Shown here: in pieces, positions 1-17,502 of the stretch | How the letters are laid out: each line of letters begins with the position of its first letter | Numbering within the stretch: the first letter of the stretch is position 1 | NCBI GenBank assembly: GCA_046350635.1 | Contig: JAXLZY010000001.1 | Coordinates: forward strand, 154,727-178,726 | DNA length: 24,000 nt | Source of the DNA: Candidatus Saccharimonadales bacterium | GTDB lineage: Bacteria; Patescibacteriota; Saccharimonadia; Saccharimonadales; CAIOMD01 | Direction of reading: 5' to 3' | The notes under the pieces: model-generated | Told to the model about the DNA's origin: nothing | The model's database searches: none | Seen by the model: the letters and a program-made list of their open reading frames with translations, nothing else | Program-made: the position numbers and the translations under genes

Positions 1-421
1 CGCTAGTAGCGTTGTTTGCCTTATCAAGAACGAAGTTCACAATAACTTGTGATAGGGCAACTATTACCAAACCGACAATAGCGTAAAGGATTGTATTCTT
101 CGCAGCCGTCACACCGCCTGAATCACCACCACTTGTGATGTACTTAAATCCACCGTAAATCAACATGATGACCGATACAGCACCAACAACCCATGAGAAA
201 ATACTTATAATCTTGCCGATGATAGTTGGGAGAGTATTTTGGTTTGCATTTGACTGACACGAAGCACTTGTTGCATTAGTTGGGTCGCCACATGCACCCG
301 CAGCGGCTGAATCGCCAGGTGATGTATAGACTGCAAGTGATACGCCCGTAACGACAACAGGCGCCACTAGCAGGCTAAAAGCGACAACTAGGGTACTGAA
401 TAGTAGTTTGAGTTTGTTCAT
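1..421 (-). CDS. VirB2/TrbC-like T4SS pilin paralog P6 (partial; C-terminal end runs off the left edge)
   Basis: Absent from the ORF track because it is truncated. The ATG is the reverse complement of 419-421, preceded by AGGA with a 5-nt spacer. Hand translation gives MNKLKLLFSTLVVAFSLLVAPVVVTGVSLA (signal peptide), a Cys pair (AAGACGDPTNATSASCQ), then IFSWVVGAVSVIMLIYGGFKYITSGGDSGGVTAAKNTILYAIVGLVIVALSQVIVNFVLDKANNATS. The frame is open to position 2 and the pattern is almost the same as ORF 501-929. Confidence 0.8.
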   Translation of the reverse strand, partial: MNKLKLLFSTLVVAFSLLVAPVVVTGVSLAVYTSPGDSAAAGACGDPTNATSASCQSNANQNTLPTIIGKIISIFSWVVGAVSVIMLIYGGFKYITSGGDSGGVTAAKNTILYAIVGLVIVALSQVIVNFVLDKANNATS

Positions 422-500
422 TTTATTCCTTTATTAATTTATTACCTGTTTTATACCACGTAATCACCCCCACTTCAAGGGGTGTGACTACTGCACATGT

Positions 501-926
501 TTATTTACATTGCGAAGACGTAGGGTTTGTGGCGCAGTTAGTCTTTTTTAGAACAAAAATTACCAGCGTCTGCGAAAGTGCAACGACCACCAAACCGATA
601 AGTGCATAGATTATCGTGTTTTTAGCTGAGGTTATCTTGCCAGCATCACCACCACTCGTGACGTATTTAAAGCCTGCAAATATAAGCATAATTACTGCTA
701 TTGCACCAACGACCCATGAAAAGATGTTTATTATCTTAGCCACTAGGTCCTCTGGCTGTGCGCTTCCGGTACTTCCATCATTACACACCCCATTAGCATA
801 TGTGCCTCCGATAGCCTGACAAGCTGCTTGTTTGGAAGCATCGCTAGCGGCAATTGCAGGAACGGTAGCAAAAAGTGCTGTAGCGCTAAGCACCAATGCA
901 GAAAATAAAGTTAATAGTATTCTCAT
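501..926 (-). CDS. VirB2/TrbC-like T4SS pilin paralog P5
   Basis: Signal peptide MRILLTLFSALVLSATALFATVPAIAA and a Cys pair (AACQAIGGTYANGVCN). Two hydrophobic helices are joined by a short basic loop (IFSWVVGAIAVIMLIFAGFKYVTSGGDAGKITSAKNTIIYALIGLVVVALSQ), and a second Cys pair sits at the C-terminus (NCATNPTSSQCK). The track start at 929 is a TTG only 1 nt after a GGAGG (reverse complement of 931-935). The ATG at 926 has usable spacing, so I prefer 926. Confidence 0.8.
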   Translation of the reverse strand: MRILLTLFSALVLSATALFATVPAIAASDASKQAACQAIGGTYANGVCNDGSTGSAQPEDLVAKIINIFSWVVGAIAVIMLIFAGFKYVTSGGDAGKITSAKNTIIYALIGLVVVALSQTLVIFVLKKTNCATNPTSSQCK

Positions 927-934
927 CAATCCTC

Positions 935-1336
935 CTATAGTTTCGAAATTACTAAACCGACAATCACTCTCGCAAGGACAATCACAATCAAACCAACGAG
1001 CGAATAGATTATTGTCTCACGTGCTTGAGTAACTTTACCAGGGTCGCCACTACTTTTTGCGAGCCTAAACCCTGCAAAAATCATCATTATGACCGCTATT
1101 GCCCCAGCAAACCATGCTATAAGATTTGCGATATTTATAATTATACCGTTACTACCTGTTATTGGATCGGTAGAGTCAGTAACACACGCCGGGTTAGCTG
1201 CGCGTTGCTCGGGGCTTAGTGATTGGCATGTTGCGTCGATAGAATCGGTAGGCGTTGCGGCCATTATTACCGAGTTTGGTTGAACCATTACGAGGAAAGA
1301 AATCAAAAAGACTGTAGTCAATAAAAGGGCTTTCAT
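935..1336 (-). CDS. VirB2/TrbC-like T4SS pilin paralog P4
   Basis: 133 aa with a signal peptide (MKALLLTTVFLISFLVMVQPNSVIMAA) and a Cys pair (ATCQSLSPEQRAANPACV). The conserved hairpin is IAWFAGAIAVIMMIFAGFRLAKSSGDPGKVTQARETIIYSLVGLIVIVLA. The ATG shares one base with the stop of the upstream paralog (TAATG at 1334-1338), and AGGA lies 8 nt upstream. Confidence 0.8.
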   Translation of the reverse strand: MKALLLTTVFLISFLVMVQPNSVIMAATPTDSIDATCQSLSPEQRAANPACVTDSTDPITGSNGIIINIANLIAWFAGAIAVIMMIFAGFRLAKSSGDPGKVTQARETIIYSLVGLIVIVLARVIVGLVISKL

Positions 1337-1641
1337 TACACTTTTCCTATAACGAACGCTACAATTGCAGTCGCACTTAATGAAATTATAAGCCCAATAA
1401 CGGCATACACAATTGTCTTTCGGGCAGAAACAATTTTTTGTGGATCACCAATTGAAATAACATACTTAAAACCTGCTATAACTATCACAAGAAAGCTTAT
1501 TGCGGCAATTAGACCAAAAACAAAATACAATATACTCTGCAACTTAGCATCAGATGTAGTGGGTGATTTTGGTATACCTAACGAGTTTGGATCTCCCAAA
1601 ACTCCCGTTGCGACATAAATTAAGTTCTTAATTGGTTCCAT
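1336..1641 (-). CDS. Short VirB2/TrbC-like pilin paralog P3 (no obvious signal peptide, no Cys)
   Basis: 101 aa. It carries the conserved two-helix hairpin (LYFVFGLIAAISFLVIVIAGFKYVISIGDPQKIVSARKTIVYAVIGLIISLSATAIVAFVIG). The N-terminus (MEPIKNLIYVATGVLGDPNSLGIPKSPTTSD) lacks the basic-hydrophobic leader seen in the other five. Confidence 0.7.
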   Translation of the reverse strand: MEPIKNLIYVATGVLGDPNSLGIPKSPTTSDAKLQSILYFVFGLIAAISFLVIVIAGFKYVISIGDPQKIVSARKTIVYAVIGLIISLSATAIVAFVIGKV

Positions 1642-1649
1642 GAATACTA

Positions 1650-2147
1650 TTATGATACCTGTTTAGATAAGAAGGATGCCACAAATCTAACAATTTGGGA
1701 TGCGAGCAGGGCAATCACCAAACCAATGATGGCATTTAGTATAGTTTTACGGGCAGAAACAATTTTGTTGGGCTCGCCCTGAGAAACAACAAAACTAAAA
1801 CCACCGTAAATTACAAACCCAACAGCCACAACAGCCGAAAGACGAATTAATATATCCGTAATCGCTAATAAAATTAAAAATATTATCTTAAGCCCATCTC
1901 CGTCAGCCGGCTTAGTCTGAATTTCACATCCGGTATCCGTTTTAACTACATCTAAATATTCATACCAGGTCGGAATGCCAAATATAGTTGTTTTTTTGCC
2001 GCAGGTTGCATCTGCAGCGGCCTGTGCCGCAGCTGTTGCAGAATCTGCCGGAGGCTGTGGGGCGGCATAGGCCGAAACAGGTACAATGACTGCGTAAAAC
2101 ATAAAGAAACCAGCTAACACAAAACTTACGGGTAAGAACCGCTTCAT
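1650..2147 (-). CDS. VirB2/TrbC-like T4SS pilin paralog P2
   Basis: The track ORF extends to 2174, but the second ATG (2145-2147) is preceded by a perfect AGGAGGTG with a 7-nt spacer. It yields a clean signal peptide (MKRFLPVSFVLAGFFMFYAVIVPVSAYAA) and forms a TAATG overlap with the stop of the upstream gene. It has a Cys pair (DATCGKK...DTGCEIQ) and the conserved hairpin VVAVGFVIYGGFSFVVSQGEPNKIVSARKTILNAIIGLVIALLASQ. Confidence 0.8.
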   Translation of the reverse strand: MKRFLPVSFVLAGFFMFYAVIVPVSAYAAPQPPADSATAAAQAAADATCGKKTTIFGIPTWYEYLDVVKTDTGCEIQTKPADGDGLKIIFLILLAITDILIRLSAVVAVGFVIYGGFSFVVSQGEPNKIVSARKTILNAIIGLVIALLASQIVRFVASFLSKQVS

Positions 2148-2737
2148 TAGAACGCACCTCCTGGTATTAACCATTGCAAGAACGCATACAAAAATATAAA
2201 TGCGGCAAGCCCTAATACGACATTTGCAATTCGTGTTTTAGCCGCCTGAACAGCTTGTGGATTATCGCGAGCAGCCGAATATTGTAACCCTCCAACAATA
2301 ATCATTAGCACTGCCCCTATACCTATAATTCCTGCAAAAATATTAATCGCCACTTTGAGCCACGTGATAATCGGGTTGTTATCCGTTGAATATTTCTCTG
2401 AGTTTGGATAAATACTACCAACGGTAACAGATTGGGCAACCGCAACTGGTTTAACAAGAACTTTTGTTTTGTCTTTGGCGCAAGCAGTATTCGTTTTACA
2501 TACTGCTGTAATGTATTTTTTATACGCGGCTTGGCCACACGCGGTATCATCAGCTGCACACTTTGCGACATCGGCAACATAGGTTGCACACTTGGCATAA
2601 TACGGCTCCTTAAGGCTTGCGCAATAATCTGTGCCATTTTCTGGAGCAGGAGCGGCCTGTGCCGTAACGCCAACCATAACGAAAAATGCAAACGTCAGCG
2701 GTGCGAGTAGGATATATTTTAATGCTTTTTTATTCAT
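2147..2737 (-). CDS. VirB2/TrbC-like T4SS pilin paralog P1 (largest, six-Cys head; first gene of the pilin operon)
   Basis: 196 aa with signal peptide MNKKALKYILLAPLTFAFFVMVGVTAQAA. Six Cys lie in an Ala/Lys-rich head (DYCASLKEPYYAKCATYVADVAKCAADDTACGQAAYKKYITAVCKTNTACAKD). The hairpin is more divergent but recognisable: IFAGIIGIGAVLMIIVGGLQYSAARDNPQAVQAAKTRIANVVLGLAAFIFLYA. Confidence 0.7.
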   Translation of the reverse strand: MNKKALKYILLAPLTFAFFVMVGVTAQAAPAPENGTDYCASLKEPYYAKCATYVADVAKCAADDTACGQAAYKKYITAVCKTNTACAKDKTKVLVKPVAVAQSVTVGSIYPNSEKYSTDNNPIITWLKVAINIFAGIIGIGAVLMIIVGGLQYSAARDNPQAVQAAKTRIANVVLGLAAFIFLYAFLQWLIPGGAF

Positions 2738-2882: not shown

Positions 2883-5726
2883 ATGCTTCGCAATCTAAAA
2901 CAAATAAAATACCGTGTTGGCCTACCGATAATCGCTTTGGTCTTTTTCTTAGTAAGCGTCATTCCGGCAGTGTATACCAGTTACTACGCTTCGGCCGCAA
3001 CGGGCTCAAAAAATGATATCGACCAGCGTGTTTTTGCATTTCAAGCATATGTCACTATGTCGGATGGTAGTTGTGTTTGGGAAGATAGTGGCATATTTAC
3101 TGACGCCTCAACCTGGATGCAGACTTCTTGGAGTAGCCAGCGAAACAAAAATGTACCAGTAGGCACCGTGTTTAATCGCCAGGTTGCTAGAACCGGGGGT
3201 GAAGGCGACATTAACTGTGACAATATGAATGGCTGGGTAGATAAGGCTGTTACAGTTTGGGGGTTTGCGAGCACTAAAGAGTTCTTGGACAAGCTTGTTA
3301 CAAATGGTGGCCTCACGTTTAATAATGGTGAATATTCAAAAGTTGGCGACAAAGAAATTGAAGCCGCTATCAAAAAAACTCTACAAGCAACAACATTTTT
3401 TAGTGGCTCAGACTTAGGCGCATTATCTAAAGACGAGTTTTACTACGATGCGCTTATTAATTTTCAAGATACCTGTAGCGTCTCTTTCTCTAGCTCAGAC
3501 GCAAAGCTCAACGGAGATGATCGTGTATCAGCAAAAACGAAAAAGGTTGAGGCCGATGGCACGGTAACAGAAGGATATTGGCATTTTAGTGGAAAAGGTA
3601 CCAAGAGTGTTGGTACCGCCTTGAAACCCGGTGAGGGTACAGCAGACTGTGAAGAACTTGCATCCATGGTAAGCAGGGCAGAATATGTAGATGCATACAT
3701 AAAGTACGTGAAAGATGGTGGCACACCTCCGTCAGATGGCAGTACGGGTAGTGGCCCGGGCGCAGGAACGGCCTGCACGCAAATTATTAATCCACTTACC
3801 TGGATACTTTGCCCAATCCTTGATCTTGCAGATGGGCTGTACGGCGTGTTCACCTCATTTATTCAATCAATGCTTACTGTACAAGAATCGCTGTATGATT
3901 CAGAACAACTAAAAGCCTCTTGGGCTGCTATGCGAAATATTGCTTCATCGCTTATCGTGATTGTTGCGCTAATAATGATTGCCAGCCAAGTATTTAATTT
4001 TGATTTTCTAAGTGCCTACACAATCAAAAAGGTTTTACCGCGACTTATTATTGCAGCTATCGCTATTCAGCTATCGTGGTTTATCTTTACGACAATAATT
4101 ACGGTCATTAACGCTATAGGGCTTGGTATTTATTCGCTTATGCTGGCGCCGTTCGGGCTCAATGGTGGGGGCGGTGATATTGTTGACCTACTTGGAACAC
4201 AAAGCGAAGGCGCGAAATTATTTAGTGGCACACTAATTGCAGTTGGCGCCGGTGCGGGCTTTATTGCAGTCGGAGGCCTGGCCGGTATCGTAGCAGCTGC
4301 TATTGCTGTTGGATTTGCACTTGTAATGGCTGTGGCGACCCTAATTTTACGCAAAATGCTTATTATCGCTCTTCTCGTGCTTGCTCCACTTGCACTTGTG
4401 GCATGGATTTTGCCGGGTACACAAAAATACTGGACTACTTGGTGGAATCTATTTATACGGTTATTGTTTATGTTCCCGTTAATTATGATTCTTATCGCGA
4501 GCGGTAAGATTTTTGCAGCATTACTCGCCCAAAGTGGCGCTGGCTATGCGGTAGAGCAAGGAATAAAACCATTAATCATTATTATTGCCTACTTTATTCC
4601 ACTGTTCCTAATACCGGCGACATTTAAATTCGCTGGTGGAATATTTGCCACCGTATCAGGAAAGATGAGTAGCTTCGGCAAGCAATGGGGCAAGCAAAGT
4701 GGAGATCTTGCCAAAGGTAAAACCATTGAAAGTGTTGGCCGCTTAGCACGTAATAGGAATAATAGATTCACCAGAGGACTTAATTACGCTTCTCATGGAG
4801 CAGTCACATCCAGGCAAAGATCAAGAGCCGCAGAAACAAGTCGCGCAGCCATTCATGAACGTGAAAAAAACTTTCAGGCACTTGTTGAAGCTAGAACAGC
4901 AGGCATGGATCGTGGTCGTAAGCACGCCGAATTACTCGATATAATTAACAACGGTAGCGAAGATATGGCAGAGGGAGCAGCTAGGATTTTAGCCGCGGAG
5001 CGTGGCTGGAATCAAATGGATAATTTAAACGCTAGGGGGCTCCATAGAGTTAGGGAGATTGCTGCCAATGATCCAACAGGTTTCGGTAGCTCACTATGGT
5101 CTTCCAGAAGAGATATTGCAGATGGTCCTGCGGATAGAATAAGTACGATGAGTGCAAATGATGCTGCAGGCCAACATAGTTCATTCTTTACTGCTGGTAA
5201 CGTTAATCAGCTTGACCCAAGAACTGCGGCTGATTTAACTAGAAACCAAACTCTTATGTCAGCACTTAATGCTGACACTCAAGAGCTAATATACCAACGT
5301 GCTGGGATACCTAATCCTATAGCTGGTGGTGGGGGTAATCCTGCCAGAGGTGGAGCTCCTGCCCCTGCCGCTGGTGGTGGTGGCGCTCCTGCTGGTGGAA
5401 ACCCTGCTGCCGGTGGAGGTAATAGAGGTCAAGCTGGTGGAAACACTCCGCCACGAGTCATCAATTTAACACAGGGTACAACTGGCGCTGGGACTACCGG
5501 TGCAGCTACAATGTTACACACAGCAAGTAATGTTCAAACTCAAATTAATAATGCTGGGGGCATGAGTTCTCTTAGTTCAGAAGAGGTTATTGATATCTAT
5601 AATCATGCCGATCGAAACTGGAGAAATGATACTGAAGGTACCCAGATTGGCCTCGATGCAATTGATGAACTAAGAAATCGAGGCATCTTACCACCATCTA
5701 ATAATGGTCCGACGACAGGCCCGTAA
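2883..5726 (+). CDS. VirB6/TrbL-like polytopic membrane protein with large extracytoplasmic N-domain and long cytoplasmic tail
   Basis: 947 aa. An N-terminal anchor (LPIIALVFFLVSVIPAVY) is followed by a roughly 300-aa Cys-containing soluble domain. A block of about 7-8 hydrophobic helices spans aa ~350-590 (e.g. LIVIVALIMIASQVF, LIIAAIAIQLSWFIFTTIITVINAIGLGIY, IAVGGLAGIVAAAIAVGFALVMAVATLIL, LIIALLVLAPLALVAWIL, LIIIIAYFIPLFLIPA). This is typical of TrbL/VirB6 and the Gram-positive PrgH/TcpH class. The basic tail contains a Gly/Ala/Pro low-complexity stretch (aa 813-856). The family call rests on topology and gene context only. Confidence 0.6.
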   Translation: MLRNLKQIKYRVGLPIIALVFFLVSVIPAVYTSYYASAATGSKNDIDQRVFAFQAYVTMSDGSCVWEDSGIFTDASTWMQTSWSSQRNKNVPVGTVFNRQVARTGGEGDINCDNMNGWVDKAVTVWGFASTKEFLDKLVTNGGLTFNNGEYSKVGDKEIEAAIKKTLQATTFFSGSDLGALSKDEFYYDALINFQDTCSVSFSSSDAKLNGDDRVSAKTKKVEADGTVTEGYWHFSGKGTKSVGTALKPGEGTADCEELASMVSRAEYVDAYIKYVKDGGTPPSDGSTGSGPGAGTACTQIINPLTWILCPILDLADGLYGVFTSFIQSMLTVQESLYDSEQLKASWAAMRNIASSLIVIVALIMIASQVFNFDFLSAYTIKKVLPRLIIAAIAIQLSWFIFTTIITVINAIGLGIYSLMLAPFGLNGGGGDIVDLLGTQSEGAKLFSGTLIAVGAGAGFIAVGGLAGIVAAAIAVGFALVMAVATLILRKMLIIALLVLAPLALVAWILPGTQKYWTTWWNLFIRLLFMFPLIMILIASGKIFAALLAQSGAGYAVEQGIKPLIIIIAYFIPLFLIPATFKFAGGIFATVSGKMSSFGKQWGKQSGDLAKGKTIESVGRLARNRNNRFTRGLNYASHGAVTSRQRSRAAETSRAAIHEREKNFQALVEARTAGMDRGRKHAELLDIINNGSEDMAEGAARILAAERGWNQMDNLNARGLHRVREIAANDPTGFGSSLWSSRRDIADGPADRISTMSANDAAGQHSSFFTAGNVNQLDPRTAADLTRNQTLMSALNADTQELIYQRAGIPNPIAGGGGNPARGGAPAPAAGGGGAPAGGNPAAGGGNRGQAGGNTPPRVINLTQGTTGAGTTGAATMLHTASNVQTQINNAGGMSSLSSEEVIDIYNHADRNWRNDTEGTQIGLDAIDELRNRGILPPSNNGPTTGP

Positions 5727-5737: not shown

Positions 5738-6874
5738 ATGGCTGTATATAAAGTAATACAAGATATTGAGGCAGAAGATAAACTCCTTGGGCCATTAACT
5801 CTCAAACAGTTTATCTTTGCGGTTATTTCTGCTGGTTTTGTGTTTGTAGCTTTTATTGCTGTTTCAAAACTTGGCAATATATTAGTTGCTATACCGTTTT
5901 TACCTTTTATCTTAGTATTCGGCGTACTAGCCGCACCACTTGGGCGCGATCAACCAACAGATGTGTGGTTGGCGGCTCAAATTCGTTTTTTTACCAAACC
6001 CCGCAAGCGCATTTGGGATCAGTCTGGTATTAAAAACTTAGTTACCATTACCGTCCCTAAAAAGATAGAAAAGATTTATACCGATGGCTTAAGCCAGCAA
6101 GAGGTTAAAAGCCGTTTGCAAGCGCTCGCCGAAACAATTGATAGCCGCGGCTGGGCCGTAAAAAACGTCGCCGTTAATATGTATGCTACCCCAGCCTATG
6201 CAATGGCGTCTGACCGCCTTGTCGACCCTTCAAGCTTGCCACAAGCCGTACCGACAACTGATATAACAGCAGCCGATGACATCATGGATGCAACCTACAA
6301 CCCGGTAGCACAACATTTTGATCAAATGGTACATGATGCTACTACGGCGCAAAAGAATGCTGCAATCGCACGAATGCAGCAGGCGATGGCAAGCCCTCAA
6401 GCTCCACCGCAAACAAACCAACAAGCCCCGGTTGACCCTTGGTTTATACATCAACCAGACCCGTCTGCAGTACCGCAAAATAGTGCAATGTTTAGTGCTC
6501 AAACCGTTGCTCCTGTAGCTGTAGCTACACAACAACCAGAAGATGGGTTTTTGTCTGAACACACCGAACAACCATCGTCGCCAGAAGAGGCCGAGTTACT
6601 CGAACATATAAAAGCCGAAAAACAGCAAGAGCATCAAGGTTGGGCACATCACAAGACTATTAAAACACCCGAAGAAGTCGCAGCCGAAGAAGCGGACCAA
6701 AAACAAAAAGAGCTAGAAGAAAAAGCAAAACAAGCACAAGCGGTGACACCCCCTAAAAACCCTGGTATAGTAGAACTTGCAAATACTAACGATCTTAGTG
6801 TGGCAAGCGTAGCGCAACTTGCGAAACGAAACAGCCAGAATGACGACGGAGAAGTTGTTATTAAACTGCACTAG
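5738..6874 (+). CDS. PrgI/VirB3-like small T4SS membrane protein fused to a ~230-aa disordered C-terminal tail
   Basis: The N-terminus AVYKVIQDIEAEDKLLGPLTLKQFIFAVISAGFVFVAFIAVSKLGNILVAIPFLPFILVFGVLAAPLGRDQPTDVWL matches the PrgI-family pattern as I remember it. That pattern is a conserved DIE..DK..G.LTL.Q motif followed by two TM helices. The gene sits immediately upstream of the VirB4 genes, as VirB3 analogues do. The remainder is Q/P/A/E/K-rich low complexity. Confidence 0.65.
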   Translation: MAVYKVIQDIEAEDKLLGPLTLKQFIFAVISAGFVFVAFIAVSKLGNILVAIPFLPFILVFGVLAAPLGRDQPTDVWLAAQIRFFTKPRKRIWDQSGIKNLVTITVPKKIEKIYTDGLSQQEVKSRLQALAETIDSRGWAVKNVAVNMYATPAYAMASDRLVDPSSLPQAVPTTDITAADDIMDATYNPVAQHFDQMVHDATTAQKNAAIARMQQAMASPQAPPQTNQQAPVDPWFIHQPDPSAVPQNSAMFSAQTVAPVAVATQQPEDGFLSEHTEQPSSPEEAELLEHIKAEKQQEHQGWAHHKTIKTPEEVAAEEADQKQKELEEKAKQAQAVTPPKNPGIVELANTNDLSVASVAQLAKRNSQNDDGEVVIKLH

Positions 6875-6894: not shown

Positions 6895-7764
6895 GTGTGC
6901 GTCGCTATGCGCGATATGAATCCAGATACACAAGGCACTATTCCTAATCAATATTCTCAGCCCGGTATACAACCGGGTGGCTATTCTCAACCGCAAAATT
7001 CGGGCGTACCGCCTCAGCAGCAAGCACCTGTAGCCCCCGTTAAATCTAACCCAAATAGTACCCAAAACACACTGCTCATTAACGAAATCCGCGATGGCGT
7101 CGTTATTATGAGTGATGGCTCGTTTAGGTCGGTTGTCATGCTTAAAAGCATTAACTTCGACCTTATGAGCCCGCAAGAGCGTGAAGCAGTAGAGTATTCA
7201 TACCAGGGTTTTTTAAACTCACTGTATTTTCCGGTTCAAATATTTGTACGTTCACAAAAAGTTGACCTTGGGCCATATCTAGATAAGCTTGTTAAAATTC
7301 GTGGCGAACACGACAATATGCTACTTGCCATGTTAATGGATGATTACATTAATTTTATGGACAATTTAGCCGCGCAAACCAATATTATGGACAAAAAATT
7401 CTATGTTGTTATTCCGTACTTTCCTAATGTCGATACCCAAAAAGCCGTGCAGGCAAGTAAAAGTTTATTCTCGGGCTTATTTGGCCAAAAAGAACAAGCA
7501 ATTACTATCAACGAAGGTGACCTAGAAGCGGCAAAAACAGAACTCCGTAATCGCGTGCAGGCAGTGCTTAACGGCCTCATGCAGTGTGGGGTACAGGGCC
7601 TACCACTCGATACCCAAGAACTTATAGAACTTTACTACGATGCCTATAACCCTGATACGGCCACACGCCAACAGTTAAAAAACTTTAGTGATTTAACAGC
7701 GCCAGTAATAACAAAGGGCGAAGGCCAAGCCTATCAGCCTAACCTTGATAGGGAGATGAACTAA
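6895..7764 (+). CDS. VirB4 N-terminal-module-like protein (separately encoded), with Q/P-rich disordered head
   Basis: The ordered part is LLINEIRDGVVIMSDGSFRSVVMLKSINFDLMSPQEREAVEYSYQGFLNSLYFPVQIFVRSQKVDLGPYLDKL...NIMDKKFYVVIPYF. It resembles the extreme N-terminal region of Firmicutes-type VirB4 proteins (Tn916 Orf16/TcpF/ConE class), from my memory of the alignments. Its stop overlaps the VirB4 ATG (TAATG at 7762-7766). The start is uncertain: 6895 is a GTG, and in-frame ATGs lie at 6907 and 6916. Confidence 0.5.
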   Translation: MCVAMRDMNPDTQGTIPNQYSQPGIQPGGYSQPQNSGVPPQQQAPVAPVKSNPNSTQNTLLINEIRDGVVIMSDGSFRSVVMLKSINFDLMSPQEREAVEYSYQGFLNSLYFPVQIFVRSQKVDLGPYLDKLVKIRGEHDNMLLAMLMDDYINFMDNLAAQTNIMDKKFYVVIPYFPNVDTQKAVQASKSLFSGLFGQKEQAITINEGDLEAAKTELRNRVQAVLNGLMQCGVQGLPLDTQELIELYYDAYNPDTATRQQLKNFSDLTAPVITKGEGQAYQPNLDREMN

Positions 7765-9668
7765 TGGCTGTCTTTGGTGGTAAACAACCCAAAATTGACC
7801 CAGTGCTAATGGCTGAACAGCAACGAGCACTCGAACAGCAAGAGGTTCAGGCGGCATTCCAAAAGGGTGTAACAGCACTCCGAGATTTTATCGCACCAAG
7901 TTCCATCGAATTCCAGAGTAACTTCTTTCAAATTGGTACCCGTTATGCCCGCACCTACTACGTCTATGGCTATCCACGCCAAATCTACACTGGCTGGTTA
8001 AGCGGTATGGTTAATATCGATGAAGTGATGGATATGTCAATCTATGTCTATCCGGTAGAGAGCCAGGTTGTACTCGAGAATTTGCGCAAAAAAGTAGGTC
8101 AGCTCGAAGCCGGTTTACAGATTGACGCCGAAAAGGGTAAGGTCCGTGACCCAGGTAAGCAAGCTGCCATTATGGATGCCGAAGAGATGCGCGATAAGCT
8201 TCAGGTGGGCGAAGAACGATTCTTTAGGTTTGGTCTGTACTTTACGATCTACGCAAGCTCAATGGATGAGCTCGAATTTGTAAGCCATAAAATTGAATCT
8301 ATGCTCGGCCAACAGCTCGTGTACTCAAAACCAGCTAGTGCCCAGCAAGAGCAGGGGCTTAACAGCGTTTTGCCCCAGTTTATGGATCAGCTTCAAATTC
8401 GCCGCAATATGAATACCGGTGCTATTAGTACTAGCTTTCCGTTCACGAGTGCCGACTTAACAGATGACCACGGCATTTTATACGGCATAAATATGCACAA
8501 TAGTGGCCTCGTTATTTTTGATAGATTCAGCCTAGAAAACGGTAATAGTGTTGTGTTCGCTAAATCCGGTGCTGGTAAAAGTTTTGCGGTTAAGTTAGAA
8601 ATTTTGCGTAGCCTCATGATGGGCACTGAGGTTTTTGTGTTAGACCCAGAAAACGAATACCAACGCATGGCCGAAGCAGTCGGTGGTGCCTATGTAAAGC
8701 TTTCGCTTGGTTCACCAACACGAATTAATCCATTTGATTTACCTCGAGTTGTAGATACCGAAGAAGCTGATAACGCCTTGCGCAGTAACCTCATTACACT
8801 CCATGGCTTATTGCGCCTCATGATGGGTGGAGCTCAGGCACAACTGCTTGGCAATGCAGGGCAAATGGCACCAGCGCTTAGCCCCGTAGAAGAAGCCGAT
8901 TTAGATGCCGCACTTATAGAAACCTATGCCAAGGCAGGCATCACTAATGACCCGCTTACGCACACAAGTGTTCCGCCGACAATCAGCGACCTGTACGATA
9001 CCTTATTACATATGGGCGGAACAGGCCCGCAACTGGCGCAACGACTCCGCAAATACACAACCGGTACCTTTGCGGGTATTTTTAGTCAGCAAAGTAATAC
9101 CGATATCAATAATCCTTTTGCGGTCTTTAACATTCGTGACTTAGAAGATGAGCTAAGGCCGGTAGCTATGTATATTGTTCTTAACTTTATATGGAACAAA
9201 ACTAAGGCAGATCAAAAGCGTCGCATTTTAGTAATAGACGAAGCCTGGCAATTTATGAAGTACGAAGATAGCGCCAGCTTTATCTTTAGCCTCGCAAAAC
9301 GTGCCCGTAAATATAACCTTGGTATCACTACTATCAGCCAAGACGTAGAAGACTTTATTGGGTCGCGCATGGGTCGCGCAATCGTTGCTAACGCTTCAAT
9401 GCAGCTACTCTTAAAACAAAGCCCAACTGCTGTCGACATGCTCGCAGACGTATTTAAGCTAACGAGCGAAGAAAAGAAACGCTTAAGCCAGTTCCCTGTC
9501 GGGCAAGGACTGTTTTTTGCGGGCCAAAGCCACGTACATATCCAAATTATGCCTAGCCCAACCGAAACAAGTCTTATCACAACCAACCCCGAGCAAGTCA
9601 AAGCTATTGAGCAACAGGGTCAGATACCGCTATCAGGTAACGCGACCGGCGAAATTAACGGATTTTAA
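7764..9668 (+). CDS. virB4: VirB4-family T4SS ATPase (TraE/PrgJ-like)
   Basis: 634 aa. Walker A is FAKSGAGKSFAVK (Lys codon 8577-8579) and Walker B is RRILVIDEAWQF (Asp-Glu 9237-9242). Downstream motifs are ARKYNLGITTISQDVEDF and ANASMQLLLKQ. The N-domain pattern is YARTYYVYGYPRQIYTGWLSGMV...DMSIYVYP. GGGAG lies 8 nt upstream of the ATG. Confidence 0.9.
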   Translation: MAVFGGKQPKIDPVLMAEQQRALEQQEVQAAFQKGVTALRDFIAPSSIEFQSNFFQIGTRYARTYYVYGYPRQIYTGWLSGMVNIDEVMDMSIYVYPVESQVVLENLRKKVGQLEAGLQIDAEKGKVRDPGKQAAIMDAEEMRDKLQVGEERFFRFGLYFTIYASSMDELEFVSHKIESMLGQQLVYSKPASAQQEQGLNSVLPQFMDQLQIRRNMNTGAISTSFPFTSADLTDDHGILYGINMHNSGLVIFDRFSLENGNSVVFAKSGAGKSFAVKLEILRSLMMGTEVFVLDPENEYQRMAEAVGGAYVKLSLGSPTRINPFDLPRVVDTEEADNALRSNLITLHGLLRLMMGGAQAQLLGNAGQMAPALSPVEEADLDAALIETYAKAGITNDPLTHTSVPPTISDLYDTLLHMGGTGPQLAQRLRKYTTGTFAGIFSQQSNTDINNPFAVFNIRDLEDELRPVAMYIVLNFIWNKTKADQKRRILVIDEAWQFMKYEDSASFIFSLAKRARKYNLGITTISQDVEDFIGSRMGRAIVANASMQLLLKQSPTAVDMLADVFKLTSEEKKRLSQFPVGQGLFFAGQSHVHIQIMPSPTETSLITTNPEQVKAIEQQGQIPLSGNATGEINGF

Positions 9669-9724: not shown

Positions 9725-10663
9725 ATGCTTTTAATGTTTTCTTCGAAAAATTCCTACGCAGATACAAAAGCTAACAAGCGAGTGGCTGCTGGTGCGATGA
9801 TACTCGCAGGGGCACTAGCCTTAGCTGGCTGCGGAAACTCTGATAATAATGCCCCGTCATCACCAAACACACAGCCCGTTGCTACTGCGACCCCCTCAAC
9901 CCCAGAAAGTCCAACAGAGACGCCATCAGTAAGCCCAACTACTTCACCTGAAAACGTTGTGCTACAATTCGATACTGATAAATTACCCGTAACCCCCAAA
10001 AATTATTCCGAAGCTCGCGAAACATTAGAATTTCTTATCGATAAACAAGTAGACAAAAACCTTCGATCTAAATTATGGGATGCAATCGAATCAAATAACG
10101 CCGAATATTTCAATAAACTTAGTATTTCTAAAGAAGATGTTGAAGCAAATCTTCAGTATTACGAAGAATACCTAAAAACATTGGATATAATCGCAGACCA
10201 ATTCAGCGAAACTCCTGAAGCACGCATACCCATAAAATCGAATCGCCTCATGGGCGAAAGTATGGTTATTGTGTTACGAGAACTTCTGTCGAGAAACGAT
10301 ATTGTTTCTAAATTGCAAGACAAAGCATCTGATATAAATGTAACTACTTTTTCTAAAAGAACTCGGGTGGATAATTCACCTATTACATCAGTTGCATTTA
10401 CAATTGCAAAAGTTGGCAAAGATCCCGAAGCTTGGAGCGCAGGCTACCATAACGAAGACGGCTCATTAAAAGTAATAACCGACGACATGATAATCGTGCA
10501 AGAACAGTTAAAGTTCAATCCAGCATCAGATTCAATGCAGTCAGAAGTACTTTCTCGAATTGTATATACCACTGTTAACAAGCTCGGCTCACTATGTATT
10601 GCAAAGCTTAGTGGTTTCGATACACACTGTGACGCACAAGTTGCAACCCATTTTGCTGAATAG
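9725..10663 (+). CDS. Lipoprotein of unknown function (T4SS-associated by context)
   Basis: Lipobox LALAGC with the Cys codon at 9830-9832, preceded by KANKRVAAGAMILAGA. A Pro/Thr/Ser-rich linker (PSSPNTQPVATATPSTPESPTETPSVSPTTSPE) precedes a ~230-aa domain I do not recognise. An alternative ATG at 9734 has AGGA 8 nt upstream. Confidence 0.7.
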   Translation: MLLMFSSKNSYADTKANKRVAAGAMILAGALALAGCGNSDNNAPSSPNTQPVATATPSTPESPTETPSVSPTTSPENVVLQFDTDKLPVTPKNYSEARETLEFLIDKQVDKNLRSKLWDAIESNNAEYFNKLSISKEDVEANLQYYEEYLKTLDIIADQFSETPEARIPIKSNRLMGESMVIVLRELLSRNDIVSKLQDKASDINVTTFSKRTRVDNSPITSVAFTIAKVGKDPEAWSAGYHNEDGSLKVITDDMIIVQEQLKFNPASDSMQSEVLSRIVYTTVNKLGSLCIAKLSGFDTHCDAQVATHFAE

Positions 10664-13700: not shown

Positions 13701-13808
13701 ACAGGAGCCCACAGTTCAAGAACACCGTCAGGTGTCACCGATCCGGTTAACCTCAAGAATAGTGACTATTGGGATTACGGCGTTGAGTATGTCGGAGGTG
13801 GCTTGTAA
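10743..13808 (+). CDS. Large membrane-anchored protein with C-terminal CHAP/NlpC-P60-like cysteine peptidase/amidase domain (PrgK/TraG/Orf14-like cell-wall hydrolase or effector)
   Basis: 1021 aa. An acidic disordered N-terminus is followed by a TM helix (VILGALIPIGLILIVLFLMSAL) and ~740 aa that I cannot assign. A Gly-rich linker (GGTVGGGGSSGGQG) leads to the last 170 aa (nt 13296-13805). That region has a candidate catalytic Cys (PLGCNSYANIAI, codon 13449-13451), PGDLIIH, and GHVEVVVSYDPKTDKLITTGAHS. The order is the Cys...PGD...GHV...(polar) order typical of CHAP domains. Confidence 0.65.
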   Translation: MPNAVYDDEKERTANPDSSLVNDSNETAQTASDSSSDTNLADKESDAAKNDTFDEPPTAEKSFYNPMGDKQNSLKSSSTSIVSNIARRRVILGALIPIGLILIVLFLMSALKIPNYAANIATYRFARSAMEYAKTSSEIDGAKIAIETSDDTKYGKFREKYANLRSATWGKFDQYRPEKVYQNLKADGTIKYEVETKKWKGIETRTKITAVIINNERIPVESQTFRQRFGSPVDSYRDRLKYSRAVNAQISEALKGSSTLVRSSVAKKIRADLNIKLRFWEKGAKNYSGLKPDEADQLLLKENDERIRTKPTGTATTSSINEATDKVDNAIKDCIDDADCAKEMASGENPEKITTALTESADEGIVRKALGIISPTYGIVVPACMIYDGSIDHASDAIDAQTASTIKTYNTFATQADQQKVGDTSPEAIAAVNRKLAAGDSVPDQYLSGRTVDTSVEKSPQASVLGDFTMLNALIPNQTVANGLNTIAEPVCKTLTNVGVNAAIAGVSIVIAIFTGGTSGAAEGAGSQSIRAIVTATLEKGFLKTIVKSAVDKVATIEGRNQLKGFSKKFARDFVAIEGATALTKLLVMSRSGLINNGATSSGADYINQADMGAVNENNIYMQQMMYGAPMTNANTALADKSATTLLAEKESQAPGLGKYFGITSPVSKIRNNMAIGFASMKQRGLSSSLKYFSFGSVLKSIIPNQNVSAADTSGANWGIVQWGWTDEENALIARDSSYGVVENEAALSDQVRSVVESEYGKCFSSTMGTLLGSGDIKRNESGDVVTNDGLCSPENLGPKNPKYGDAVFRWRLSKKREMVLDQNLGLQNPSKDGKSDSGGTVGGGGSSGGQGMSADEVFAQCKNNTATGKVKIVCGTTELNGVPYGENFVSAWKDAKPSPLGCNSYANIAIARATNGKYRKDYCSGGYEKEGAREGNFKKIAKTAVQPGDLIIHDRLGGASCGGTSGEGHVEVVVSYDPKTDKLITTGAHSSRTPSGVTDPVNLKNSDYWDYGVEYVGGGL

Positions 13809-14368
13809 TGAATGCGTTGCAAATTCTTATTAAATATAAGGTGCTAATTATTAGTTTGTTCACCTTTATTTTAATAACATTCATTGTATTTAAATTTGCC
13901 CCAGTGACGGTTGTAAATCCTGAACCAATTAATAATATGTATATAAATAATGTTCATGCCGAGGCTTTAAAGGTAAGTACAACATCGGGGAAAAAACGAA
14001 TCGGATTTAGTAATCCCACAACTGTATATAAAGAAGAAACTGTTTTCTTATGGCCGTTCCAGACATATACTCCTAAATATTCTGGTGAAAAGCAGAATAC
14101 TGCATCTATATTAAAAGAGTCTGGATACACAGATATAGCTGAATATCCATTTATTTCAGAGAAGTATTTTTCACAAAATAGATGGTTGGTAGTCTACGAA
14201 AAGAGTAGCGGTGGCTTTGACACAACGCGGGTTGTGGGTGTATTAAAATACAGCTCAAAATCTGGATTATGGGAAGTGGTCGATCGCAGCTCAAGCCTAC
14301 ACGAGGACTGGTGGGATAGCATAATGCCAGACGAGATATTAAACTACATAGAAAACGGTGGTAGGTAG
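13808..14368 (+). CDS. Small N-terminally anchored protein of unknown function (candidate immunity or VirB8-like component)
   Basis: 186 aa with a TM anchor (VLIISLFTFILITFIVFKF) and a ~150-aa extracytoplasmic domain. There is a strong GGAGGTG 7 nt upstream, and the ATG overlaps the upstream stop (TAATG at 13806-13810). It is AT-rich: my hand counts of three 60-nt lines give about 28-37% GC. Confidence 0.6.
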   Translation: MNALQILIKYKVLIISLFTFILITFIVFKFAPVTVVNPEPINNMYINNVHAEALKVSTTSGKKRIGFSNPTTVYKEETVFLWPFQTYTPKYSGEKQNTASILKESGYTDIAEYPFISEKYFSQNRWLVVYEKSSGGFDTTRVVGVLKYSSKSGLWEVVDRSSSLHEDWWDSIMPDEILNYIENGGR

Positions 14369-14369
14369 C

Positions 14370-16985
14370 ATGGCTATCTTGGGTTTACTTGGATTTGAAG
14401 CAATAAATAGACGTCGGCTATTGCGTTCGTTTGTATTACTTTTTGTTCTATTCGGCTTTATCTTCTCAACGTTATATTCACAAATATCGTACGCACAAGG
14501 TATAACAGTGAGTGATCTTAACGCCATACTCGAAAAACATCCAAACTATGACCCTAATGCGACTGATTGCCAAAACGTAACCCCAGCACTTCAAACAGTA
14601 ACAACAAATAAATCTGTGTATGTAATTGGTGATTCTTACCTTAGGGATTCAGCCACACTACTTACAACCAGCTTAAAAGCATCTGGTTACGAGACGGTAA
14701 CAATCAATGGTCATGGTGGTCGTGGTATTAACCGACCTGCAAACGATGGTGCGCCCGCAGCTTTAACCGCCATCGAGCAAGATAAAGATAAAATTGCATC
14801 TGCAGGTACGATAATTATTATTCTAGGTACGAATCCTTCTGACGCAGCAACTCCACCAGGTCCAATTAATGCTTACGATTCTTCAATACCTGTTTTTATG
14901 AAAAAATTAACTGGCTATAATGCTCAAGCTCGTATTTTCTGGGTTAATACTGATCACCTTGATACTCAGAGAACGGTATTAATTAAACCAACAAACACAG
15001 CCATCGAAAAATACTCGAGTCAGTTTTCGTATAAAGTTGTCGATTGGTATAGCGCTTTAGAAAAAACTACTAAAAAACAGTACTTAGACCCTTCTTCAAG
15101 CTACCTACACCCAAACACGACAAAAGGGTATCCACTTTTTGTAGACACAATTAAAGCGAGTGTGGGCAGTCCTATTACCTCATACCAAGACTCCTCAAAC
15201 GCACCGTCGGTAGCTAGCAACTCAGTAAACCTTAAATTATTGACAGATGTACAGGAAAAAAATAAACCAAATGTCCCTATTATCTGGAATTGGCTCCGCG
15301 CAAAAGGATTTAGTGAGGTTCAGACTGCCGGAATTATGGGTAATATTTATCAAGAAAGTAAGTTCCAGATAGACCTTTGGGATCCACCTGCATACGGCTT
15401 AATTCAATGGCAACATGAACGCCTAGATCAATTAAAAAAGTTTGCCTCTAATCGTAATATTCCTCTTGATAATATCGATACCCAGATGCGTTTTATGATG
15501 ACCGAGTTAACGAGTAAGACTGGTCGATTTTATGAACCGGTTTATCTACCACTGAAAAAGACTACCGATTTAGCGACAGCAGTTAATTTAATGCTTGAGC
15601 ATTACGAAGAGCCAGGGGATTACGAAACCGAGCGCCCATTACGACTTAAGTGGGCAAAAGAAGTACTAGAAACTATGGGTGGAAGTGCCGTTTCAACACC
15701 CACTCCAGCACCAACTGATGGAAAAACAAATTGTGCCCCCGTGACAGGTAATTCCTGTGAGTCAATTTTGCTTCCGACAATTATCGACCCCAGTAAGTTG
15801 GGAAGTGCCATAGATAAGTATATTAGCGATGTCAGTAAATCATATAACGGCAAAAAATCACCATTTGACGGCCTTGGTTCAAAGTTTGTAGAAGGGGGTA
15901 TTAAATCGGGTATTAATCCATTTATCGCAGTGGTTCACGCACACAAAGAATCTCTTTTTGCACTGTATGATGCAAAGGGTTGGCATAACTATACGTTCGC
16001 AACTAAAGAAGCTGCTGCGGCTGGGAATACCGCTCAGCTTTCTCCTTCGTATAATGCCTATGGTCGGTCTGCGGGCGGTGATCAGCCGACTGTTTGGTAT
16101 AACGGAAGTAATGGTCCACGCCCCGTCTATAAGTGGTCTTCTTGGGAAAATAGCTTAACGGGTGATGATAGTTTCTTTGCGTATTACAAACGCAAATGGG
16201 TAGACGAAAAAAAATACACCTCTATAGACGACATCATTAAAGAATACGCGCCAGCATCCGATGGCAACAACCCCTCAGAATACGCTTCTTTTATGCATAA
16301 TAATATTTCAAAACTAATCTCACTTGCCGGCGATTCTATCGACTGTGGTAGTGGTGGAGCTGGTGCCGGTGGTTCTGGTGGCACAAAACTTGACGGTAAA
16401 GAAACTGTAAAACTTCAATATGGGTACTACGTTAAAGATGGGGGTGATCCGAAGATGATTTACTATAGCCAATACGACGCTAGATATAATGGCGCAGAAG
16501 GTAAGAAGATATACCCCAGCTATGACAGAACAGATCTAGGACCTTTTGGCCAGTGTGGATGTTTTTCAACCAGTATGGCGATGGCAATAAACACAATCGG
16601 AGCCAATAAAAACATTAATCCTCTTGATATCGGAAAAGAAGTGCTAGCGGCCGGCGTCAACGCAGGTGGTTGTGGGTACAGTGGCGAATCTGGCTTTGGT
16701 GAAAAACTTGGTCCAAAATTTAATGTTTCGATTAAGTCTACAAACTCATTCACGGTTGCAAAACAAGGTTTACGTGATGGCGGATTGGTTGTGTTAAGTG
16801 TTGGACCTTCTGAGTTTACGACGGGAAGTCACTATATAGTTTTAAGAGGTTTGACGAGTGATGGTAAATTTGCTGTTGCTAATCCAACAAACAAAGACCA
16901 GACACTAACTGGTACATACACTGAAAGCCACATAAGTAGTATCTTTAATGGTAGCGGAAAGATGTGGGTAGTAAGTGCTAAGTGA
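14370..16985 (+). CDS. Four-module secreted/anchored peptidoglycan hydrolase (SGNH esterase + phage-tail-lysozyme-like + GH73 glucosaminidase-like + C39-like cysteine peptidase)
   Basis: The track start 14358 is a GTG inside the previous gene. The ATG at 14370 follows GGTGGTAGG, so I prefer it. Residue numbers below use track numbering. N-terminal TM: FVLLFVLFGFIFSTLY. Module 1 (aa ~86-265): VYVIGDSY, NGHGGRG, ILGTNPSD, YLHPNTTKGY (SGNH blocks). Module 2 (aa ~305-437): TAGIMGNIYQESKF...YGLIQWQHERLDQLKKFA...DTQMRFMMTEL...LEHYEEP (phage tail lysozyme family pattern). Module 3 (aa ~475-655): INPFIAVVHAHKESLFA...NAYGRS...FFAYYKRKW (GH73-like). A Gly linker (GSGGAGAGGSGG) leads to module 4 (aa ~683-875): YYSQYD...GQCGCFSTSMAMAI...GSHYIVLRGLTSDGKFAVANP (Peptidase_C39-like pattern). 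Confidence 0.7.
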   Translation: MAILGLLGFEAINRRRLLRSFVLLFVLFGFIFSTLYSQISYAQGITVSDLNAILEKHPNYDPNATDCQNVTPALQTVTTNKSVYVIGDSYLRDSATLLTTSLKASGYETVTINGHGGRGINRPANDGAPAALTAIEQDKDKIASAGTIIIILGTNPSDAATPPGPINAYDSSIPVFMKKLTGYNAQARIFWVNTDHLDTQRTVLIKPTNTAIEKYSSQFSYKVVDWYSALEKTTKKQYLDPSSSYLHPNTTKGYPLFVDTIKASVGSPITSYQDSSNAPSVASNSVNLKLLTDVQEKNKPNVPIIWNWLRAKGFSEVQTAGIMGNIYQESKFQIDLWDPPAYGLIQWQHERLDQLKKFASNRNIPLDNIDTQMRFMMTELTSKTGRFYEPVYLPLKKTTDLATAVNLMLEHYEEPGDYETERPLRLKWAKEVLETMGGSAVSTPTPAPTDGKTNCAPVTGNSCESILLPTIIDPSKLGSAIDKYISDVSKSYNGKKSPFDGLGSKFVEGGIKSGINPFIAVVHAHKESLFALYDAKGWHNYTFATKEAAAAGNTAQLSPSYNAYGRSAGGDQPTVWYNGSNGPRPVYKWSSWENSLTGDDSFFAYYKRKWVDEKKYTSIDDIIKEYAPASDGNNPSEYASFMHNNISKLISLAGDSIDCGSGGAGAGGSGGTKLDGKETVKLQYGYYVKDGGDPKMIYYSQYDARYNGAEGKKIYPSYDRTDLGPFGQCGCFSTSMAMAINTIGANKNINPLDIGKEVLAAGVNAGGCGYSGESGFGEKLGPKFNVSIKSTNSFTVAKQGLRDGGLVVLSVGPSEFTTGSHYIVLRGLTSDGKFAVANPTNKDQTLTGTYTESHISSIFNGSGKMWVVSAK

Positions 16986-17502
16986 TAAACTCAAACAACT
17001 ATCGGACGAGCAAAAAAAACAACTGCTAATTATCGGTGTGGTGATTCTTGTAATACTGTTTTTTGGAGTTATCGGATTCACGAGTGGCTCTGGGAATAAT
17101 AATACAAGTGTAAAAAAAGATGCTTATGGCGATTTAATCGAAACTAAGATTTCTGGTCAACCAATAGAATCAAAAGACGACACTTTTGTTATACGATTTA
17201 ATGATTTTCTTACAAATAACGTATCACCCCTACAGCTTGATGCACTTAAAAAATCAATTAGGTTTTATATATGGGACACTATAAATAGTGATGAGACTAA
17301 GGCTGTTTTTGACGATGGTAAATTTGAATCTCAGGGTGAATCTAGTATCTATACGGTGACAGTAAGAACAAACAACAATACTACAAAATTTACAATTAGA
17401 ATGAAGATAGATAATAAACTAAATATTGTGTCTGCGACTGCGGATTACAATGGAGTATCGACAGATTTATCAGTCACTCCAAGAACGACTAACCAAGACT
17501 GA
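16975..17502 (+). CDS. Small N-terminally anchored protein of unknown function (second candidate immunity or VirB8-like component)
   Basis: 175 aa. The GTG start overlaps the upstream gene by 11 nt, and there is no in-frame ATG before the TM helix. The TM anchor is LLIIGVVILVILFFGVIGF, followed by a ~130-aa Asn/Thr/Asp-rich domain. It is AT-rich: sampled 60-nt lines give about 28-38% GC. Its 3' end overlaps the convergent recF by 14 bp. Confidence 0.55.
   Translation: MLSDKLKQLSDEQKKQLLIIGVVILVILFFGVIGFTSGSGNNNTSVKKDAYGDLIETKISGQPIESKDDTFVIRFNDFLTNNVSPLQLDALKKSIRFYIWDTINSDETKAVFDDGKFESQGESSIYTVTVRTNNNTTKFTIRMKIDNKLNIVSATADYNGVSTDLSVTPRTTNQD

Follow-up and report, generated by a model that had tools for sequence, protein, structure and literature searches.

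Why would a bacterium with a Gram-positive-type type IV secretion system (T4SS) carry six pilin genes in a row? The question is raised by one end of a 24,000-nucleotide stretch of the genome of Candidatus Saccharimonadales bacterium, a member of the Patescibacteria or candidate phyla radiation (CPR); this whole stretch (assembly GCA_046350635.1, contig JAXLZY010000001.1, positions 154,727 to 178,726) is called the window below. A first-pass annotation, made from the sequence letters, had described six tandem T4SS pilin paralogs in positions 1-2737, and six consecutive open reading frames (ORFs), P1 to P6, are indeed called there, all on the minus strand (Table 1). We lean towards the explanation that they encode the VirB2-like subunits of a chromosomal, origin-proximal T4SS of Gram-positive type, which would work with a major subunit and several minor ones. 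The identity of the genes as a T4SS_pilin array is hardly in doubt; the fixed heteromeric arrangement of major and minor subunits is put forward tentatively.

All six proteins are members of the Pfam family T4SS_pilin (PF18895), with scores of 28.3-54.4 bits against a curated gathering cut-off of 26.6 bits. P5 is 100% identical to a database protein (P0001) which carries the NCBI name 'pilin [Candidatus Saccharimonadales bacterium]', and the 120 database homologues of P5 all match PF18895 as well. The TrbC/VirB2 family PF04956 (cut-off 27.9 bits) is matched by 78 of these 120 homologues at E <= 1e-3, with a best value of 1.3e-8. Within the array, P3 (22.6 bits, E = 1.2e-4) and P5 (19.6 bits) give scores below the cut-off and the other four proteins give no match. 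Because the matches to TrbC/VirB2 are at the family level only, the relation of the array proteins to it is that of a superfamily and not of membership. The defensible statement is that they are members of T4SS_pilin, itself a distant family-level relative of TrbC/VirB2. With the PF18895 scores, the TrbC/VirB2 matches of the homologues and a T4SS operon adjoining the array, the pilin assignment of the first pass is upheld. A further remote relative is NCBIfam NF045849, the 'Mbov_0395 family pilin-like conjugal transfer protein', which is matched by all six proteins (E 1.8e-9 to 7e-3, 16-37.2 bits) in alignments that span about positions 7-79 of the 80 in the model. Its equivalog cut-off of 40 bits is reached by none of the six, and they are therefore related to that family but not members of it.

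The paralogs differ strongly in sequence. Global identity to P1 is 18-26%, only 5 alignment columns are invariant across the six, and the closest pair, as had been noticed earlier, is P5/P6 with 48% identity. Conservation is highest in the C-terminal module of two hydrophobic helices that had been proposed from the sequence: pairwise identity averages 36% in the hairpin columns versus 21% in the N-terminal part, and AlphaFold2 models the module as a helical hairpin. The conserved motif covers the end of helix 1, the loop and the start of helix 2, with G(D/E)xxKxxxA(K/R) as the short basic loop. A longer consensus for this module, given in the first pass for all six, fits P2-P6 but not P1, which departs from it (GGLQY...RDNPQAV). 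In the AlphaFold2 model of P5 (mean predicted local distance difference test, pLDDT, 78.6) a signal-peptide helix (residues 2-20) and a head consisting of a small helix and a beta-hairpin, which holds Cys36 and Cys48, precede the two hairpin helices (58-90 and 95-133), which are linked by a four-residue loop. In P1 the corresponding helices (122-155 and 160-190) are modelled with pLDDT values of 84-95 and the six-Cys head with values of 45-70, which is too low for a structure search. Models and alignment together give the layout of TrbC/VirB2-type subunits, which are small, exported and built of two hydrophobic helices that a short basic loop connects. The Lys and Arg residues of the loop fit the cytoplasmic side of the membrane, so that both termini would face the outside, and with such N-out/C-out placement a Cys pair at the C-terminus of P5 would also be located outside.

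The regions ahead of the hairpin had been described as wholly different from one another. The low N-terminal identity agrees with this, but P4, P5 and P6 have a small two-Cys loop, C-x(11-16)-C, in common. P1 has the largest head, about 97 aa with six Cys that are all conserved in the closest related genome (L001), and a distinct C-terminus, LQWLIPGGAF. The two-Cys head of P2 carries the motif F.G.P.WY.YL...GC, which is conserved in the position-2 consensus of related loci, and P3 has no Cys, no clear signal peptide and about 32 aa ahead of helix 1. The additional C-terminal Cys pair of P5 is not conserved in L001. The Cys counts of P1-P6 (6, 2, 0, 2, 2 with 2 more at the C-terminus, and 2) were correctly given in the first pass, and the preference for even numbers extends to 275 related pilin ORFs, described below. 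The number of Cys before the hairpin is even and non-zero in 215 of them, odd in 27 and zero in 33 (binomial p = 1.5e-37 for even versus odd), and Cys is nearly absent from the hairpin itself. Some of the odd counts may arise from over-long ORF calls, such as a 174-aa version of P2. Disulfide pairing of the heads, as predicted from these counts, is statistically well supported. P6 also contains two copies of the tetrapeptide NATS, one within its head (PTNATSAS) and the other within its C-terminal tail (ANNATSAT). The two would be extracytoplasmic, and they could be glycosylation-type sequons or mere chance.

The number and order of the genes can be compared across the 80 loci with the closest VirB4 (81-95% identical), which come from metagenome-assembled genomes (MAGs) titled overwhelmingly Candidatus Saccharibacteria/Saccharimonadales and otherwise Patescibacteria group or unclassified bacterium. 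A search of these loci with a hidden Markov model (HMM) of the hairpin module gave the 275 pilin ORFs. Thirty-three arrays are complete, in the sense that they are bounded by non-pilin DNA, and in 28 of these the gene count is exactly six; the remaining five arrays contain 5, 5, 7, 8 and 9 genes. Variation in copy number, for which the first-pass annotation had proposed to look in related genomes, is thus present but restricted to a few loci. The positions are also recognizable from one locus to another. Cross-locus best hits fall at their own position in 1038 of 1056 cases for P1 (98%), 1050 of 1056 for P2 (99%) and 880 of 1056 for P3 (83%), and in a neighbour-joining tree of hairpin sequences position 4 is a nearly pure clade (32/33). 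Within each positional orthogroup the heads bear conserved motifs. Position 1 is occupied by a protein of 105-301 aa in total with a long multi-Cys head (2-11 Cys) and a conserved LQWLIPGG C-terminus, and position 3 by a short one (median length 102 aa) in which Cys is rare or absent and a signal peptide is not clearly present. A small loop with two Cys makes up the head at positions 4-6. Of the six, position 6 is the most conserved, both in cross-locus identity (48%) and in its hairpin. Nearly all related loci that reach far enough upstream have the array in the same location with respect to virB4.

Some deviating layouts were seen. In two close relatives (L002 and L003, VirB4 89-90% identical) the 10 kb upstream of the PrgI/TrsD/VirB4 genes contain no pilin array and no recognizable VirB6-like gene, and in L002 pilin genes appear about 9 kb downstream of VirB4, at the end of the contig; the locus must therefore have been rearranged in some close relatives. 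The expanded arrays have 9 genes (L071, 611-4959), 8 genes (L049, 583-4422) and 7 genes (L042, 1369-4581). Their additional copies lie distally, among the genes that resemble positions 4-6, and this points to duplication mainly in the P4-P6 subfamily.

The heads evolve faster than the hairpins and VirB4. In the comparison with L001, nonsynonymous divergence (dN) is 0.04 for VirB4, 0.14-0.26 for the pilin hairpins and 0.36-0.63 for the heads, so the head rate is 2-3 times the hairpin rate and about 10 times that of VirB4. A comparison of dN/dS between heads and hairpins had been proposed in the first pass. The heads do show the higher dN, but the ratio itself is uninterpretable since synonymous sites are saturated relative to L001 (proportion of synonymous differences, pS, 0.6-0.96); only dN is comparable and no claim of positive selection is made.

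The spacing of the genes sets the sixth apart. In the window the stop codon of P1 overlaps the ATG of P2 by 1 base and that of P3 the ATG of P4, P2/P3 and P4/P5 are separated by 8 nt each, and the distance between P5 and P6 is 79 nt. In related loci the median gaps are -2.5 nt at junction 1-2, -1 nt at 2-3 and -4 nt at 3-4, and 71.5 nt at 5-6, so that the last spacer is long compared to a median of about 0 nt at the other junctions. P1-P5 are translationally coupled. The start of P2 is probably the ATG at 2147, in which case the upstream Cys of the longer 174-aa ORF is not translated, and P5 starts at the ATG at 926 rather than the TTG at 929. An identical metagenomic contig (L081) has the same gene calls, with P2 called as 165 aa, and supplies the part of P6 cut off by the window edge; the full-length protein has 150 aa (L081 6758-7210).

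The spacer between P5 and P6 contains a promoter-like site (Table 1), followed by a ribosome-binding site AAGGA at 431-427 on the minus strand. A pattern of this type, TTGNNN-N13-15-T[GA]NTATAA, occurs in 26 of 33 spacers between positions 5 and 6, at 26-37 nt from the start codon and at about 440 times the background rate of the same loci, and across loci the pattern is followed by the ribosome-binding site AAGAAAGG. The general promoter scan missed the site because it requires a T at the last position of the -10 element. The sixth gene is thus predicted to have a private, conserved extended -10 promoter. Just past the stop codon of P5 there is also a strong hairpin on the minus strand (460-491, GTAGTCACACCCC-TTGAAGT-GGGGGTGATTAC), with the -35 hexamer of P6 in its loop and a minimum free energy (MFE) of -23.9 kcal/mol for the segment (z = -5.5). 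The mean z in related loci is -0.3, and the idea of a terminator or hairpin conserved across loci in the 5-6 spacer was dropped; since it is not conserved, the hairpin appears specific to this genome.

It had been suggested that more copies may lie beyond the left edge of the window. This is not the case: on L081 a convergent gene follows P6, and in L001 the 1.5 kb past the array hold Hsp20-like and ComF-like ORFs, labelled by reading of their translations, and no additional pilin. The array is thus complete at six genes.

In view of the above, a mechanism can be considered in which the six subunits are not interchangeable. They would be exported by Sec, P3 perhaps through YidC, and take up an N-out/C-out orientation in the membrane that leaves the basic loop on the cytoplasmic side and exposes the disulfide-stapled head. 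A VirB4 ATPase that is split over two genes would then extract the subunits from the membrane. Extraction of VirB2 from the membrane is established in Agrobacterium. The extracted subunits could be stacked into a tube or a short conduit across the thin wall towards the host bacterium, in which the lumen would be lined by the loops and the outer surface covered with the heads. P6, which would be separately transcribed, is the most conserved and has a small head, could be the bulk or major subunit. P1-P5 would be present in low copy number, to prime, cap or adapt the filament and to make contact with the host surface, with P1 and P2 as carriers of large, fast-evolving heads. From VirB2-type pilins we infer, by analogy, the extraction by VirB4, the polymerization, the outward position of the heads and the contact with the host. 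This model of one bulk subunit and several specialized ones is favored because the number of genes is fixed, the orthogroups are stable, P1-P5 are translationally coupled, and P6, as the most conserved subunit, has a predicted promoter to itself. Of the three functional ideas in the first-pass annotation, a heteropolymeric filament fits best, again because of the fixed number and the positional orthology; free-running antigenic or host-range variation fits less well, though the heads evolve fast. A stricter version, an obligately heteromeric VirB2-type filament with position 6 as the shaft, position 5 as its close relative and the minor subunits of positions 1-4 or 1-5 for priming, capping and host recognition, is possible but unlikely. 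If true, this T4SS would be the first of any kind with a major/minor pilin architecture. P6 is the candidate major subunit and the first to tag or deplete in a cultivable strain.

Several observations weigh against the proposal of VirB2-like subunits with a major and minor division. A filament built from these proteins has not been observed in any Patescibacterium, and in the literature the role of the T4SS is called 'completely unknown' (PMC11665869). None of the six window proteins reaches the PF04956 cut-off. In hhalign neither the P5 family nor the set of six paralogs gave a signal with Agrobacterium VirB2 (probability about 1%), whose sequence had been verified against the annotated pTi virB2, and no pilin came up when a profile of the P5 family was run against PDB sequences. 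Foldseek of the P5 model against the PDB gave no significant match, the best being a metal sensor (E = 0.66) and the best pilus match the archaeal conjugation pilus 8dfu, ranked 10th (E = 1.7), although a two-helix hairpin is too simple to discriminate and Foldseek cannot decide the pilin identity. The conservation of number and order covers one clade only, since the 80 loci are close relatives. Positions 5 and 6 intermix on the hairpin tree, are the closest pair within loci (48%) and are inseparable as orthogroups, so the six distinct roles may really be five. Finally, the promoter of the sixth gene is predicted from a sequence motif, and upstream of P1 a promoter of the same type is found in only 1 of 34 loci.

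Other explanations have to account for the same data. The six genes could be alternative, interchangeable versions of one pilin which vary the cell surface for host-strain range or for evasion of phages or immunity. The high rate of head evolution would be consistent with this, as would the observations that most P1 homologues match only the C-terminal 40% of P1, that position 1 varies so widely in length and Cys content, that a few arrays have 5, 7, 8 or 9 genes, and that positions 5 and 6 are mixed on the tree. However, exchangeable copies that vary in number and identity are not what the clade of the window displays: the gene number is exactly six in most complete arrays, each of positions 1-4 forms a stable orthogroup with motifs of its own, and the genes are translationally coupled instead of individually switched. 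Moreover, pilin genes are reported to be essential in Southlakia (PMC10633639), which is not expected for redundant variants. We consider interchangeable variants improbable for the array as a whole, but the idea is partly alive for the heads and for positions 5 and 6. Another explanation that we regard as rather unlikely is that the proteins are membrane or wall-spanning components of a translocation channel and that no extended filament is ever made of them. A comparable case may be a small pilin-like protein encoded by elements of wall-less mycoplasmas, the source of the nearest named relative outside the phylum; its family is matched by all six. The VirB4 belongs to the monoderm type, pili are generally absent from Gram-positive T4SSs (PMC10633639, PMC12102498), and no T4SS pilus has been observed in Patescibacteria. 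Buried channel parts would nevertheless hardly explain elaborate, fast-evolving and disulfide-stapled extracytoplasmic heads; the sequence links are to TrbC/VirB2 pilus subunits, and a separately promoted and presumably abundant sixth subunit suits a polymer.

The proteins might also be unrelated to secretion, i.e. small proteins with two transmembrane segments, such as holins, stress proteins or oxidase subunits, which merely lie beside a T4SS. Weak matches to DctQ, cytochrome bd subunit II and several DUFs could point in this direction, but all are far below their cut-offs and such matches are expected from the hydrophobic composition. The first-pass annotation had named placement of the proteins in an unrelated two-TM family as a ground for giving up the pilin assignment, and no such family scored better than PF18895. 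With all six proteins above the PF18895 cut-off, a conserved place relative to virB4 (apart from L002 and L003) and the TrbC/VirB2 family matches, this explanation is effectively refuted and retains a negligible probability.

The rest of the window supplies the T4SS context (Table 1). The array diverges from an operon that encodes VirB6-like, PrgI/VirB3-like and TrsD-like proteins, VirB4, proteins of unknown function and a cell-wall hydrolase. Our own Pfam and NCBIfam scans of the VirB6-like protein gave no match; the match in Table 1 is on record for the identical L081 gene. The VirB4-like ATPase also matches the Pfam models TraG P-loop and AAA_10, and scores 254 bits with the VirB4 model of mycoplasma integrative and conjugative elements (ICEs). 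It is split: the TrsD-like protein corresponds to positions 7-119 of the CD1110 model and the ATPase to positions 180-734, and the two genes abut with overlapping stop and start. The 875-aa hydrolase has, in addition to its two wall-degrading domains, a possible GDSL lipase/acylhydrolase domain (23.7 bits, below cut-off). It is an unusually elaborate wall hydrolase which could equally act on the envelope of the host. Two operon proteins (312 and 186 aa) have counterparts in L001 with no more than about 30% identity, for comparison with 95% for VirB4, 92% for DnaN and 56% for a 1021-aa protein of the operon; these two are extremely fast-evolving or were replaced, and are possibly surface proteins or effectors. 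A coupling protein or relaxase was not recognized in the window by the Pfam and NCBIfam scans, and Rfam and tRNA scans of the window were both empty. The array is 15 kb from dnaA, dnaN and recF. Since these genes and rnpA, yidC and jag adjoin, the T4SS is located at the chromosomal origin, and the 500-nt gap between dnaA and rnpA (21336-21835) is the likely candidate location of oriC.

Table 1. Positions of the pilin array, the diverging T4SS operon and the genes of the origin region in the window.
Feature	Position	Strand	Size and supporting match
P6, array position 6	1..421 (ends at window edge)	-	T4SS_pilin; Pfam PF18895 54.4 bits
Promoter-like site for P6	450..478	-	-35 TTGAAG 478-473, 17-nt spacer, extended -10 TGgTATAAA 458-450
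P5, array position 5	501..926	-	141 aa; T4SS_pilin; Pfam PF18895 51.2 bits
P4, array position 4	935..1336	-	133 aa; T4SS_pilin; Pfam PF18895 48.8 bits
P3, array position 3	1336..1641	-	101 aa; short T4SS_pilin; Pfam PF18895 41.3 bits
P2, array position 2	1650..2147	-	165 aa; T4SS_pilin; Pfam PF18895 28.3 bits
P1, array position 1	2147..2737	-	196 aa; T4SS_pilin; Pfam PF18895 37.2 bits
VirB6-like polytopic membrane protein	2883..5726	+	947 aa; PF19590 TrbL_3 (record of identical L081 gene)
PrgI family protein, VirB3-like	5738..6874	+	Pfam PF12666 41.2 bits
TrsD-like protein	6895..7764	+	289 aa; NCBIfam TrsD E = 8.7e-6
VirB4-like ATPase, monoderm CD1110 / MPF_FATA-like	7764..9668	+	634 aa; NCBIfam NF045971 357.6 bits (cut-off 325)
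T4SS-operon protein	9725-10663	+	312 aa
T4SS-operon protein	10743-13808		1021 aa
T4SS-operon protein	13808-14368	+	186 aa
Secreted cell-wall hydrolase, VirB1/PrgK-like role	14358..16985	+	875 aa; Pfam Phage_lysozyme2 99.4 bits, Peptidase_C39_2 39.5 bits
recF	17489-18556	-	
dnaN	18576-19670	-	
ORF	19688-19948	-	86 aa
dnaA	19941-21335	-	
rnpA, yidC, jag/KhpB	21836-23669	+	

Comparison with known systems shows that the array is a correct rediscovery of a published feature and not a new kind of system. In the first pass a six-gene array was called unusual, which is true for T4SSs generally but not for Saccharibacteria, where it is the published norm (PMC10633639, PMC12102498, PMC12857230). The nearest described case is Candidatus Southlakia epibionticum ML1 (SEML1_0006-0019; PMC10633639), likewise a saccharibacterium, which has six VirB2-like pilins according to a 2025 FEMS review (PMC12857230). 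Both have the Gram-positive-type T4SS cluster at the start of the chromosome, and in neither was a coupling protein or relaxase recognized. The species are different, the lineage of the window consisting of free-living or environmental MAGs by record titles, and the likeness is one of class, gene number and setting rather than a gene-for-gene alignment. Wang et al. 2023 found the pilin genes of the Southlakia T4SS cluster to be essential and described Gram-positive T4SSs as generally without a pilus (PMC10633639). Essentiality for epibiotic growth is known only from transposon sequencing (Tn-seq) in Southlakia (PMC10633639). The epibiotic life of Saccharibacteria requires the T4SS, and for a monoderm the pilin array is the most unusual component of that system.

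The pilins of diderm systems (VirB2/TrbC/TraA, PF04956) resemble the window proteins in that they are small and exported, with two helices, a short basic loop and a VirB4 partner. They are encoded by one gene in a diderm, whereas the window has six genes in a monoderm host, and the window proteins have an extra, predicted disulfide-bonded head of 30-100 aa between signal peptide and helix 1. The Mbov_0395 protein of mycoplasma ICEs, compared by its family model, shares an 80-residue two-helix module that aligns almost end to end, and the VirB4 of the window matches the mycoplasma ICE VirB4 model as well; with about 80 residues the Mbov_0395 model covers roughly the hairpin alone and leaves no room for a head. 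In PMC12102498 the monoderm MPF_FATA classes are stated to lack virB2 homologues. Contrary to this, the NF045849 and mycoplasma VirB4 matches suggest that a VirB2-like subunit is present in part of MPF_FATA. If the heteromeric filament with its position-6 shaft were true, this link would also suggest that such a subunit is ancestral to part of monoderm MPF_FATA and not borrowed from diderms. Type IV pili and the pseudopili of type II secretion systems (T2SS) offer a functional analogy only: they also combine an abundant subunit with low-copy paralogs and have disulfide-stabilized variable exposed domains, but fold and assembly machine are completely different and there is no homology.

Tandem VirB2 paralogs are also known from Bartonella and Anaplasma phagocytophilum, where they have been proposed to be alternative surface variants (as cited in PMC12102498). 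As in the window, several tandem VirB2-like genes occur in a host-associated bacterium and diverge in the exposed parts; in the clade of the window the genes keep their number and order, and each of positions 1-4 is an orthogroup of its own. The closest general class are the patescibacterial arrays of Quinonero-Coronel et al. 2025, who, with the PF18895 model, counted 441 arrays, with 2-11 pilin genes each, across 383 assemblies of Patescibacteria, located the T4SS near dnaA and suggested adaptation to different host strains (PMC12102498). The window has the features of this class: at least two tandem pilin genes near virB4, a Patescibacterium as the host, a monoderm MPF_FATA-related VirB4 and proximity to dnaA. 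Paralog identity is low in both, with a mean of 25% and a maximum of 54% within the published arrays, next to the values of 18-26% to P1 and at most 48% in the window. In the passages of that paper considered here, those arrays are presented as variable, whereas the clade of the window has a fixed six genes with positional orthology and a predicted private promoter for the last gene. To the published feature the present analysis adds this fixed number with its positional orthology, the fast-evolving heads with their even-numbered cysteines, the putative promoter of the sixth gene and the link to mycoplasma ICEs. The question raised by the locus thereby shifts from why there should be so many variants to what role each of five or six distinct subunits has.

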